64,000 nt of DNA from Vermamoeba vermiformis (GCA_045837725.1 JBEWZL010000302.1:124001-188000); one strand, 5' to 3'; counted from the stretch's first letter, positions 18,801 through 21,800 are shown. Numbers and translations: made by a program. The notes: generated by a model from the sequence alone, not told the origin.

Positions 18801-21800
18801 TTACTGAGCAGGCATGCCAGTATCGCCTTCTTTAGGATGAGCAACTTCAACACCACGGTTAGGAATGTAGGGGATCTTTCGTTCAACCATAGTGATACAT
18901 TCAGGAATAGGGCAAACGCTCACACACAAAGTGCATCCGGTGCAGTCGTCAGTAACGGTCGGAATGTGAGTCTTAGAATCGAACTTGATGGCCTAAATTT
19001 GAATGATATTAATACTAGTGTCATATATATATGCTATATAATACGTACTTGATAACCAGAGTCGTTACAAGTCATGTAGCATTTACCGCAGTTAATGCAC
19101 ATCTCGGAATCGACCAAAGCGACGACTTGTTGCTAATAATAGTAATATATTAGATCGTATATAAACATATTATAGTACTCAAGAGCTCCATACCTTTTGA
19201 TCCAAATCGTTGTAATCACCGATTCTGGAAGTACCAGTGGCAATGTGTTTGTTGACTGTGCTGACCTCAGCGCGCTGTTTCGATCGATGAGAATAGGCTC
19301 TATAATTATATACTACACTAATATAGCACGTACCTTGTTAGGCTCGCCAAGAGACACGTCCAATTCTTGCGGCAAGTTCTTCTCGAGCCTCTCCTTGGCG
19401 TATTCCTTTTGCAAACGTTGTCGCTCCTTCATGTAAGGACCGAACCTAAAGTGCCAATCTTAGTCAACTGATACTAATACTAATAAAGCATGTAACGTAC
19501 TTAGGCAAGCCCTTGCCGACTACGTTCTTGGCAGTAAGCTTGAGTTCCTTAGGAGGAGTTTGACCGTCCCATTGGGCAAGGTCCTCACGTGACTTCATGT
19601 ACAAGTAGGTCTGGAGACCAGTGATGTAGTCTTGAATAACAGTGAAGTCCTGTAAGACATCAAAGGTTACTACATAGTCCTTAATCAGCAGGCTAAAGTA
19701 CGTACTTGGTTTTGAACAGCAGAGCAGATCTGGACAACACCAGCACCAGCGTGGAAGAACTGTTCTGACGTTAGCATATCTGACATAAGGTAGTAGCTCG
19801 GTTGTTTCGTACCTGGATGGCAGTGTCGGCAGAGTCGCAACCACCGGTAGCCAAAATAGGGAAGTCAGGCAAGATGCGAGAAATAGCGGACACAGCACGC
19901 AAAGCCATGGGGCGGATAGCATTGCCAGAGACACCACCGTAAGTAGTTCTCTTTTCTTTGCCGATAGCTGGCCAAGCAGTGCCTTCATCGTCACCCTTGA
20001 GGCCCATCAGACCCGAGACAGTGTTGATGGCAGTGACACCATCAGCACCTCCCTCGTGGGCGGCAATAGCAATGCGACGAATGTCGGTGACGTTAGGAGT
20101 CAATTTGGCGAAGAAAGGAATCTTAGTGACGGCACGGACCCATTTGCAAATGTTCTTGACCAATTCGGGGTCTTGACCGCAAGCCAAGCCCATACCACGC
20201 TCACCCATACCGTGCGGGCAAGACAAGTTGAGTTCCAAGGCATCAGCGCCAGAGGCCTCAGCCATCTTGGCCAACTCTTGCCAGTCTGTTCACGAGTAGA
20301 GGTGTCATTAAGTACTATTATACTGCTTAGACGTACCTTCTTGGATATAAGCGCACATGATTGAAGCAATGACGATGTTCTTGGGGAAATCGCGCTTCAA
20401 TTCAGTGACGGCCTTGCACCAGTAAGCAGCTCGCTTTTCAGAGATCAACTCAATGTCTAACATAACAATTAGGATCGAAGGTCGTATGAAGTTAATAGGC
20501 TTGGGACTTACTCAAGAAAGAGGATTGACCAGGGCCGAAGTGATGACCACTAGTGGTACCACGGACAATACGAGGAGAGACGTTAGTGACGGTGTCCTTG
20601 TCGAGGGCAAAAGTCTTGGTGACTGCAAAACCCCAGCCAGCTTCGAAGGCACGACGGATCATGTCAGCGGAGGTAGTGGGAGGAGCAGAGGCCAAACCGA
20701 AAGGATTGGGGAACTTGATGCCGCAGATCTCGACGGAGATGTCAACAGTGTCAATGGCGGAGTAGAAGTTGGGCAATGAAGGAGCGGTGGGAATAGGCAC
20801 ACCGTATGAGCCTTGAATGAACTTGTGCACGTTCCAACTGGCTGTTTTGCCGTCGTTAGTGGCCTCGACAGTGGTACCGTTGCCAACAAGATCACCACCA
20901 GCGAACAACCAAGGCTCAGAGGGGTGTGACATGGTCTCGAGGTTGACATCCAAGTAGCCGTTGTTCTTAATGTTGAAGGGCTTGATGGCCTCGACCAACT
21001 TGGCGTCAGTGATGCCTGAGCCGAAGGCGGAGATGACAAAGTCAGCCTTGAGACGAATGAATGAATCGGGGTCATTGAAGTAATTGCCGCTATCGTCCTT
21101 CTCGGTCTTGTAGAACTCCATCGCCACGATGTGACCGTCACGAGTGACAACTTGTTTGGGAGTAACGTAAGGCAAGAACTCGCAACGTTCCTCACGAGCC
21201 AAGTCAAACTCTTCAGGGACAGCCTAAGAAAACAAAGGTTAGTTCAATGGTCGTGAGATCGGGATCAGATCGGAGGTTGGTGGATCGAGCCCAAAAAAAC
21301 GTGGATGGCAGCGCCATGCGTTTATCTGGTGTGATAACCAACTACACTACCCAACCGAAGCGTTCACTACCGCCCGCATTCTCGCAAGCAAATAATTACT
21401 AACTCAAGTGGCTGGGCCTGGCTTCGATCCAGGGACCTCCGGTTTATGAGACCAACGATGTAACGCATCGGGCAGGTAAGCATCCAAGTGCCAAAACGTC
21501 AAAATCTACTGACGCCGGCACCAAGATGTGAAGCCCGAAATCTCCGTTGATTGTCTATAAAAGGAAACTTACTCTCATGTCGGGGAAAGCACGTCTGAAG
21601 GCGATAATGACGCGTTGAGCTCCACAACGGAAAGCGGATGTGGCGCAGTCAAAAGCAGTGTCACCAGCACCGAGCACGATAACGCGACCGTACAGGCGAG
21701 GCAATTCGTTGGTCTTAGCGCCACCGCTGCCGCAGCCACAGAGACCGGTCTTGGATGACTTGGAAACGTCAGGGAGGAAATCCTTGGAGGTGTAGAAACC

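Follow-up and report, generated by a model that had tools for sequence, protein, structure and literature searches.

Can a tRNA gene be carried back to front in an amoeba-like eukaryote, and if so, how would its two halves be joined? This question is raised by a locus in Vermamoeba vermiformis (GCA_045837725.1 JBEWZL010000302.1:124001-188000), a stretch of 64,000 nt referred to below as the window. A sequence-only reading of the window had described, on the minus strand, a circularly permuted tRNA-Met(CAT) gene in which the tRNA body's 3' half lies upstream of the 5' half, with a 52-nt spacer between them. Re-reading the sequence confirmed both halves and the spacer (Table 1). We found that the tRNA gene body at this locus is real and conserved, that its halves stand back to front, and that it lies within an intron of a protein-coding gene of an amoeba-like eukaryote. 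Our favored interpretation, held with moderate confidence, is a new type of circularly permuted tRNA gene, the halves of which would be joined without the standard bulge-helix-bulge (BHB) motif.

When joined in silico, the halves form a 74-nt cloverleaf, and ARAGORN called it tRNA-Met(CAT), as the sequence-only reading had expected of such a swap. The acceptor stem has seven pairs, one of them a G-U wobble (U3:G70), and the T stem has five. There are three pairs and a U13-U22 mismatch in the D stem, and five Watson-Crick pairs in the anticodon stem. The tertiary pairs U8:A14, G15:C48 and G19:C56 are present, as are G18G19 and U33; the fully paired acceptor stem with its single wobble and the G15:C48 pair had been claimed before, and both held in the joined form. 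The anticodon loop is a canonical 7-nt loop (C32 U33, U36 A37 A38), and the T loop contains A54 and G60. A tRNA gene is supported by the normal arm lengths, the 7-bp acceptor stem, A73 and the lack of an encoded CCA. It is also supported by the position of the T-run, which is as in algal permuted genes (PMC3978253), and by the length of the spacer (51-52 nt), which is within the known range of 1-74 nt. The T-run follows the 5' half, and there is no run of at least 4 T inside the spacer.

The locus was predicted to escape standard scanners, and it did. ARAGORN found 0 tRNAs in the unswapped window, and Rfam gave 0 matches at gathering score. Below gathering score, a partial Rfam tRNA match (15.9 bits, E 1.5) covered the 3' half only; the Rfam scans by E-value returned nothing else of use. 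Scanning for swapped halves yielded one locus in the window, the permuted element itself, and none in 300 dinucleotide-shuffled windows, from which 39 prefilter candidates had been obtained.

The anticodon stem had been said to become complete only when the halves are joined, and this claim stood in part. Among the junctions tried, 28/29 is the only one that gives five Watson-Crick pairs in the anticodon stem. However, joining is not uniquely needed for pairing: the last two U of the leader can pair with G42/G43 in place of C27-C28. ARAGORN accepted all of the junctions tried (5/5, from 26/27 to 30/31) and 86/182 length combinations. Because the scanner tolerates neighboring junctions and the leader offers this alternative pairing, 28/29 is the best-pairing junction in the modeled cloverleaf and is unproven as the actual one.

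We found that the element is conserved in a relative. The comparison is based on one ortholog (L006, Ga0097678_1038314) and one identical copy (from DNA run X12). L006 has an orthologous element in the same intron, with the halves in the same reversed order. The halves are identical to those of L006 at 72/74 positions (44/45 in the 3' half and 28/29 in the 5' half). Background identity is 56% at four-fold sites (63/113), 38% and 56% in two neighboring introns, and 42% at the 3' end of the host intron. With a neutral level of 56%, the probability of 72/74 identity is about 4e-16. The halves differ at two positions, 26 and 34 (the latter in the anticodon), and 6/7 nt of the anticodon loop are kept. 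Both orthologs retain C27-C28 and G42-G43, bases that pair only between one half and the other. Outside the halves, identity to L006 is 28/32 in the leader, 24/28 in the trailer and 39/52 columns in the spacer, which is 51 nt long in L006 and contains a block identical at 18/18 positions.

A contig from the independent aquifer DNA run X12 matched positions 21293-21578 with 0 differences in 286 nt (depth 2.55). Because this contig is identical, neither the order of the halves nor C34 is an assembly error. Two doubts raised along with the original description, misassembly and a lack of conservation in relatives, are answered by this contig and by L006, respectively.

Pattern scans yielded no ortholog besides L006. 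In metagenomes, a T-arm pattern had 5 matches, of which one was the permuted ortholog L006 and four were conventional tRNA genes (3 Met, 1 Lys). Both matches of this pattern in viral contigs (2/2) were conventional phage tRNA-Lys genes, with no permuted ortholog. The leader pattern had 0 matches in viral contigs, and the 5'-half pattern had 0 matches in viral and prokaryotic genome contigs. As a separate observation, a phage contig (L001, 2351-10903) contained 18 tRNA calls, one of them with the anticodon CTA.

The host gene encodes dihydropyrimidine dehydrogenase (DPYD). Its exon at 20495-21223 is 95% identical to the close relative P0142 and 61-68% identical to named amoebozoan DPYDs, including those of dictyostelids, Balamuthia and Planoprotostelium, and Pfam analysis of P0142 supports the assignment. 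Removal of the intron was seen in RNA, in 2 reads from X21, 15 reads from X23 and one contig from X24; the last was tagged as DNA by guess, and we take it to be RNA because its contig is without DPYD introns. The RNA is from a related strain whose exons are ~92% identical to those of the window (37 differences in 489 nt). In a tree quickly built from 39 of 120 listed DPYD matches and rooted at the midpoint, P0142 grouped with named amoebozoan and unnamed protist DPYDs with a support of 87, which is not strong. For the neighboring Hsp110 gene, the best-scoring cluster with a named member contains an Acanthamoeba protein, at only 38% identity. The host is a non-animal eukaryote. An amoebozoan affinity is plausible from these comparisons, and no more than plausible because it rests on two genes. 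Together, conservation in L006 and the DPYD comparisons support the earlier suggestion of a permuted-order tRNA gene body in an amoebozoan-like, non-algal eukaryote.

Table 1. Positions of the permuted tRNA element, its flanking sequences and its host gene in the window
Feature	Positions	Strand	Remarks
Host gene, dihydropyrimidine dehydrogenase (DPYD)	18801..24086	minus	many introns; ends read by eye
GT-AG intron holding the element	21224..21572	minus	349 nt; element sense to host gene
Upstream block	21519..21528	minus	10 nt, identical in L006; candidate upstream promoter element or part of a hairpin
Leader, pairs with trailer (predicted)	21454..21485	minus	32 nt; from comparison with L006 and modeled pairs
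3' half of tRNA body (positions 29-73)	21409..21453	minus	45 nt; lower part of anticodon stem with its loop, variable loop of 5 nt, T arm (A54, G60), 3' strand of acceptor stem, A73; CCA not encoded
Anticodon	21446..21448	minus	the window and run X12 have CAT, ortholog L006 has AAT
Intervening sequence (spacer)	21357..21408	minus	52 nt; closes acceptor stem; hairpin predicted
Invariant spacer block	21381..21398	minus	18 nt, same in both orthologs; 5' arm of hairpin; AT-rich, alternatively a promoter element
5' half of tRNA body (positions 1-28, including 20a)	21328..21356	minus	29 nt; 5' strand of acceptor stem, A-box-like D arm, C27-C28
Trailer, pairs with leader (predicted)	21300..21327	minus	28 nt; alternative 5-bp hairpin of its own at 21317-21305
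Run of 7 T directly after trailer	21293..21299	minus	likely Pol III terminator, function inferred; L006 has T5 followed by T8 at this place

How might a permuted tRNA gene of this type be expressed? By analogy with the algal pathway (PMC3978253), from which all of the processing steps are inferred, a single RNA of ~190 nt would contain leader, 3' half, spacer, 5' half, trailer and U-run, and would be either a Pol III transcript or excised from the DPYD intron. The halves would fold as a cloverleaf, with the spacer hairpin closing the acceptor stem and a long leader-trailer helix projecting from the anticodon stem at 28/29, keeping the ends together. An endonuclease would cut at the base of this helix, and a ligase would join C28 to G29 to give a circle. 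RNase P and tRNase Z would then remove the spacer, and CCA would be added. Once charged, the product would be a 74-nt tRNA for an AUN codon, Met with C34 and Ile with A34. We favor a tRNA gene because every normal tRNA part, including the canonical anticodon loop and the pairs across the halves, has been kept under strong selection.

The pairing called for in such a precursor is possible in both orthologs. All of the modeled pairs of the leader-trailer helix (19/19) hold in both. One pair, adjoining the junction, is altered on both sides (compensatory); the other 6 changes are in unpaired places. Of 5000 trailer shuffles, 67 and 77 in the two orthologs attained the duplex energy. We conclude with moderate confidence that a conserved leader-trailer helix, as modeled, encloses the element. 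Our confidence goes no further because the pairing model was derived from the very two sequences compared and is biased to them, because 0/53 pairs of the RNAalifold consensus had a double change, and because the trailer has a competing hairpin. The predicted spacer hairpin extends the acceptor stem; its fold is significant in L006 (z -2.49) and not in the window (z -0.94; 38/200 shuffles fold as well). There is also a strong hairpin just upstream of the leader, at 21487-21523 on the minus strand (z -3.82; 0/200 shuffles). It can extend into the first leader bases, competing with the leader-trailer helix. Only the 10-nt block and a small stem in this region look kept in L006.

Several observations weigh against the favored permuted tRNA gene, in addition to the bias of the pairing model. 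The first concerns the junction. Maturation by the algal route, proposed in the sequence-only reading, is unsupported so far: a BHB, tested in strict and relaxed forms, was absent from 28/29 and its neighbors in both orthologs. At 28/29 the central helix has 1/4 pairs in the window and 2/4 in L006, and none of 21 same-length junctions has both a central helix and a flanking helix in the two orthologs. Junction 32/33, the only one with a 4/4 helix in both orthologs, was rejected, as a flanking helix is missing and the product would have two mismatches in its anticodon stem. The BHB forms of permuted genes are hBHBh', hBH or HBh'. C. merolae splices junctions of the 'no H' class (PMC3728597), and for O. 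lucimarinus an intron at 27/28 is listed with 'no H' (PMC3978253). This class is the sole BHB-related option left for the element. With a cutting signal that is not a standard BHB, recognition would therefore depend on a relaxed ('no H') reading of the shape by the enzyme, or else a different enzyme would act.

The remaining points against a spliced product concern the precursor and its flanks. In both orthologs the cloverleaf-constrained precursor is 7-8 kcal/mol above the free minimum. The leader, the trailer and the 18-nt spacer block are conserved in sequence beyond the apparent need of pieces that would be discarded. Most permuted genes of C. merolae have a TATA-like element within ~50 nt upstream of the 3' half, whereas visual inspection of the corresponding 50 nt in the window and L006 showed none.

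RNA reads bear weakly on this point. We searched two raw cDNA RNA-seq runs, of which ~46% and ~48% of reads were examined and 28 and 101 reads were placed. The joint expected from splicing, from 21328 back to 21453, was not reported at the threshold of at least 3 reads in these cDNA libraries of low depth. Only 2 reads were intronic (X21, ~21305-21374), and both span the 5' half uncut, with one end in the spacer and the other in the trailer. tRNA is rarely present in cDNA RNA-seq libraries, so the reads neither support nor refute maturation.

Three other arrangements were considered and rejected. For spliceosomal back-splicing, the start of the trailer has no GT and the end of the leader has no AG. 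A partner for the 5' half in conventional order, at ~21290-21275, consists of a 6-nt acceptor complement after a T-loop-like stretch and is absent from L006. Reading a tRNA-Val(AAC/TAC) from the 5' half on into the trailer gives, by eye, no proper anticodon stem. In its own right, the T-loop-like stretch with acceptor complement past the T-run (21290-21275, minus) resembles a remnant of a second 3' half.

Which amino acid would the tRNA carry? The label tRNA-Met is unsupported so far, and we are unsure of a Met identity. The anticodon of L006 is AAT and its element was called tRNA-Ile; the sole change in the 3' half, at position 34, switches Met to Ile. The D-arm sequence was found in 38 conventional tRNAs (35 viral loci), of which 29 were Gln, 8 Val, 1 Asp and none Met or Ile. 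The most similar of these is a tRNA-Val (47/74). Coming from a comparison set that is viral only, these similarities are no more than a hint of a Val-like tRNA body. G60 is unusual in a T loop, and having A54 and G60 together with a D arm of the Gln/Val type is odd in an elongator tRNA for Met or Ile. Both the anticodon change and these odd features count against the favored reading.

Eukaryotic initiator tRNA-Met has A1:U72, and its anticodon stem is closed by three G-C pairs. The element resembles it in its CAT anticodon and in A54, an initiator trait (PMC3978253), but differs in having G1:C72 and U31:A39, and the ortholog differs in reading AAT. Initiator genes in permuted form are known from red algae, green algae and Thermofilum. 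Anticodon shifts that change identity between orthologs have been documented, 30 of them in eukaryotes (PMC3923123), and the Met/Ile switch is a rare yet documented kind of event.

Four features go beyond the sequence-only reading, namely the intronic location, the helix of leader and trailer, the T-run and the conserved block in the spacer. Together they open a serious rival, an unspliced tRNA mimic. Here the whole ~190-nt RNA would be the product, with a terminal leader-trailer helix, a tRNA-shaped domain and a U-tail, and it would tether or decoy a tRNA-binding protein and not decode. Bacterial YrlA Y RNAs have been described as similar to a circularly permuted tRNA whose acceptor stem is closed (PMC4201824; 10.1101/312249), and the order of parts in the element is the same as theirs: an anticodon-like hairpin, T arm, closed acceptor stem and D arm. 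The likeness extends to the small stem-loop, to a long end-paired stem (predicted in the element), to the 7-bp acceptor stem of Mycobacterium smegmatis YrlA, and to size, which fits the 80 to ~220 nt of Y RNAs. The M. smegmatis RNA is opened by RNase P and receives CCA (PMC4201824; 10.1101/312249); by analogy, the mimic may be processed likewise into a two-piece RNA. It would keep a real anticodon loop with a wobble base free to drift, and would form a eukaryotic class of its own, encoded in a pre-mRNA intron.

We regard this mimic as a tentative possibility of sizeable weight, because the missing BHB, the wobble base that differs between orthologs, and flanks (leader, trailer and spacer) conserved well above the four-fold rate all fit a whole YrlA-like RNA. 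The T-run directly past the closing stem is also consistent with it. However, YrlA is without an anticodon loop (10.1101/312249), whereas the element has a canonical one, with 6/7 nt kept, and a full 5-bp stem formed across the halves. The element further differs from YrlA in being eukaryotic and intronic.

A true Ro60-bound Y RNA, a smaller part of the mimic reading, is improbable. The best match to the vertebrate Ro60 motif was 5/7, a score equaled or bettered in 844/3878 window tiles (22%), and the best match to the YrlA Ro60 motif was 4/6, with 2191/3878 and 2167/3878 window tiles (56%) as good; both are at chance level. There was no Y RNA family among the Rfam matches up to E 10 and no Ro60 gene near the element in the window stretch read. 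For metazoan Y RNAs, PMC4201824 reports that no tRNA-like module is apparent. A narrower Ro60 pattern, chosen post hoc, was present in 244/20000 leader shuffles and is not counted as evidence.

It is quite improbable, in our view, that the tRNA shape serves as a scaffold for releasing the spacer. In this case tRNase Z and RNase P would free a 52-nt hairpin RNA, with the invariant 18-nt arm as its active part. The invariance of the 5' arm of the hairpin (18/18) fits this, as do a 3' arm that varies while mostly keeping pairing through one-sided changes, and the significant spacer fold in L006. Against it are the ordinary fold of the window spacer, where 2/12 modeled pairs are broken, and the lack of a second match to the 18-nt block in the window at up to 3 mismatches. 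The block may be a mere promoter element, and the conserved anticodon loop would be left unexplained.

Very improbable, too, are separate transcripts of the two halves, with the 5' half started, for example, from the AT-rich spacer block, that would meet in trans through the leader-trailer helix. The invariant AT-rich block is 42-25 nt upstream of G1, and both intronic X21 reads end near 21374 on their upstream side (from depth bins). Archaeal split tRNAs offer a precedent, including close halves, junctions in the anticodon stem (30/31) and halves guided by flanking sequence (PMC3218864). However, there is no terminator between the halves, and two reads prove nothing and were perhaps clipped where the strain diverges. 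Archaeal split tRNAs also use a BHB, which is missing here, and separate promoters, whereas the element has reversed halves in an apparent single unit. A dead rearranged tRNA gene copy or an assembly artefact would accommodate the anticodon difference between orthologs but is largely refuted by the identical X12 contig and by the order, intron and halves (72/74 identity against 56% neutral) shared with L006.

How, then, does the favored permuted tRNA gene compare with known ones? Permuted tRNA genes have been described in C. merolae, prasinophytes, the Bigelowiella natans nucleomorph and Thermofilum pendens, 34 genes in all (PMC3978253), and in Auxenochlorella (PMC12633428). The element is like the algal and archaeal genes in having the 3' half upstream on the same strand, a short intervening sequence, a T-run past the 5' half, a paired leader and trailer, no encoded CCA, and halves that join into a cloverleaf. 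In contrast to them, it is found in a non-algal eukaryote, sense inside a spliceosomal intron, with no BHB central helix, an anticodon that varies between orthologs, and conserved flanks and spacer. Its putative junction, 28/29 in the anticodon stem, is absent from the 2014 list of known cases (15/16, 20/21, 37/38, 50/51 and 59/60, with intervening sequences of 1-74 nt; PMC3978253). Since a BHB was tested for and not found, we leave the element outside the BHB-type permuted genes; we do not class it as a Y RNA either.

Among the papers listed in literature searches, which extended to amoebae and Amoebozoa, we found none that described a permuted tRNA from a eukaryote other than an alga; subscription papers were mostly outside this search, and absence is unproven. 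A 2026 review on photosynthetic lineages names, in its accessible text, only algae and archaea for permuted tRNAs (PMC13578239), and the tRNA passages of an amoeba genome paper (PMC11702301) contain nothing on permuted genes.

Elsewhere in the window, the plus strand at 7110-7973 has three ubiquitin repeats in one frame, visibly different from each other, with a short terminal extension. Positions 30655-47778 contain a cluster of housekeeping genes, judged by reading frames, among them Hsp110 (identified by database search) and what we take to be a DEAD-box helicase, two likely eIF3 subunits and an exportin-1-like gene. Several short related frames at 54381-59722 (for example, 54381-54815, 55647-56129 and 59351-59722) are perhaps a local gene family.

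If the halves are spliced, permuted tRNA genes would extend beyond algae and one archaeon, and tRNA halves would be joined in the anticodon stem without the motif common to all described cases. The implication would be either that the tRNA splicing endonuclease acts on substrates not yet recognized or that another enzyme is involved, and inventories of tRNAs made with standard scanners would be incomplete for protist genomes. The location in a Pol II intron makes a long-standing question amenable to testing: how transcription proceeds when the A and B boxes of a gene are in the wrong order. If the RNA is instead left unspliced, it would be a eukaryotic tRNA mimic with a layout so far described in bacteria.

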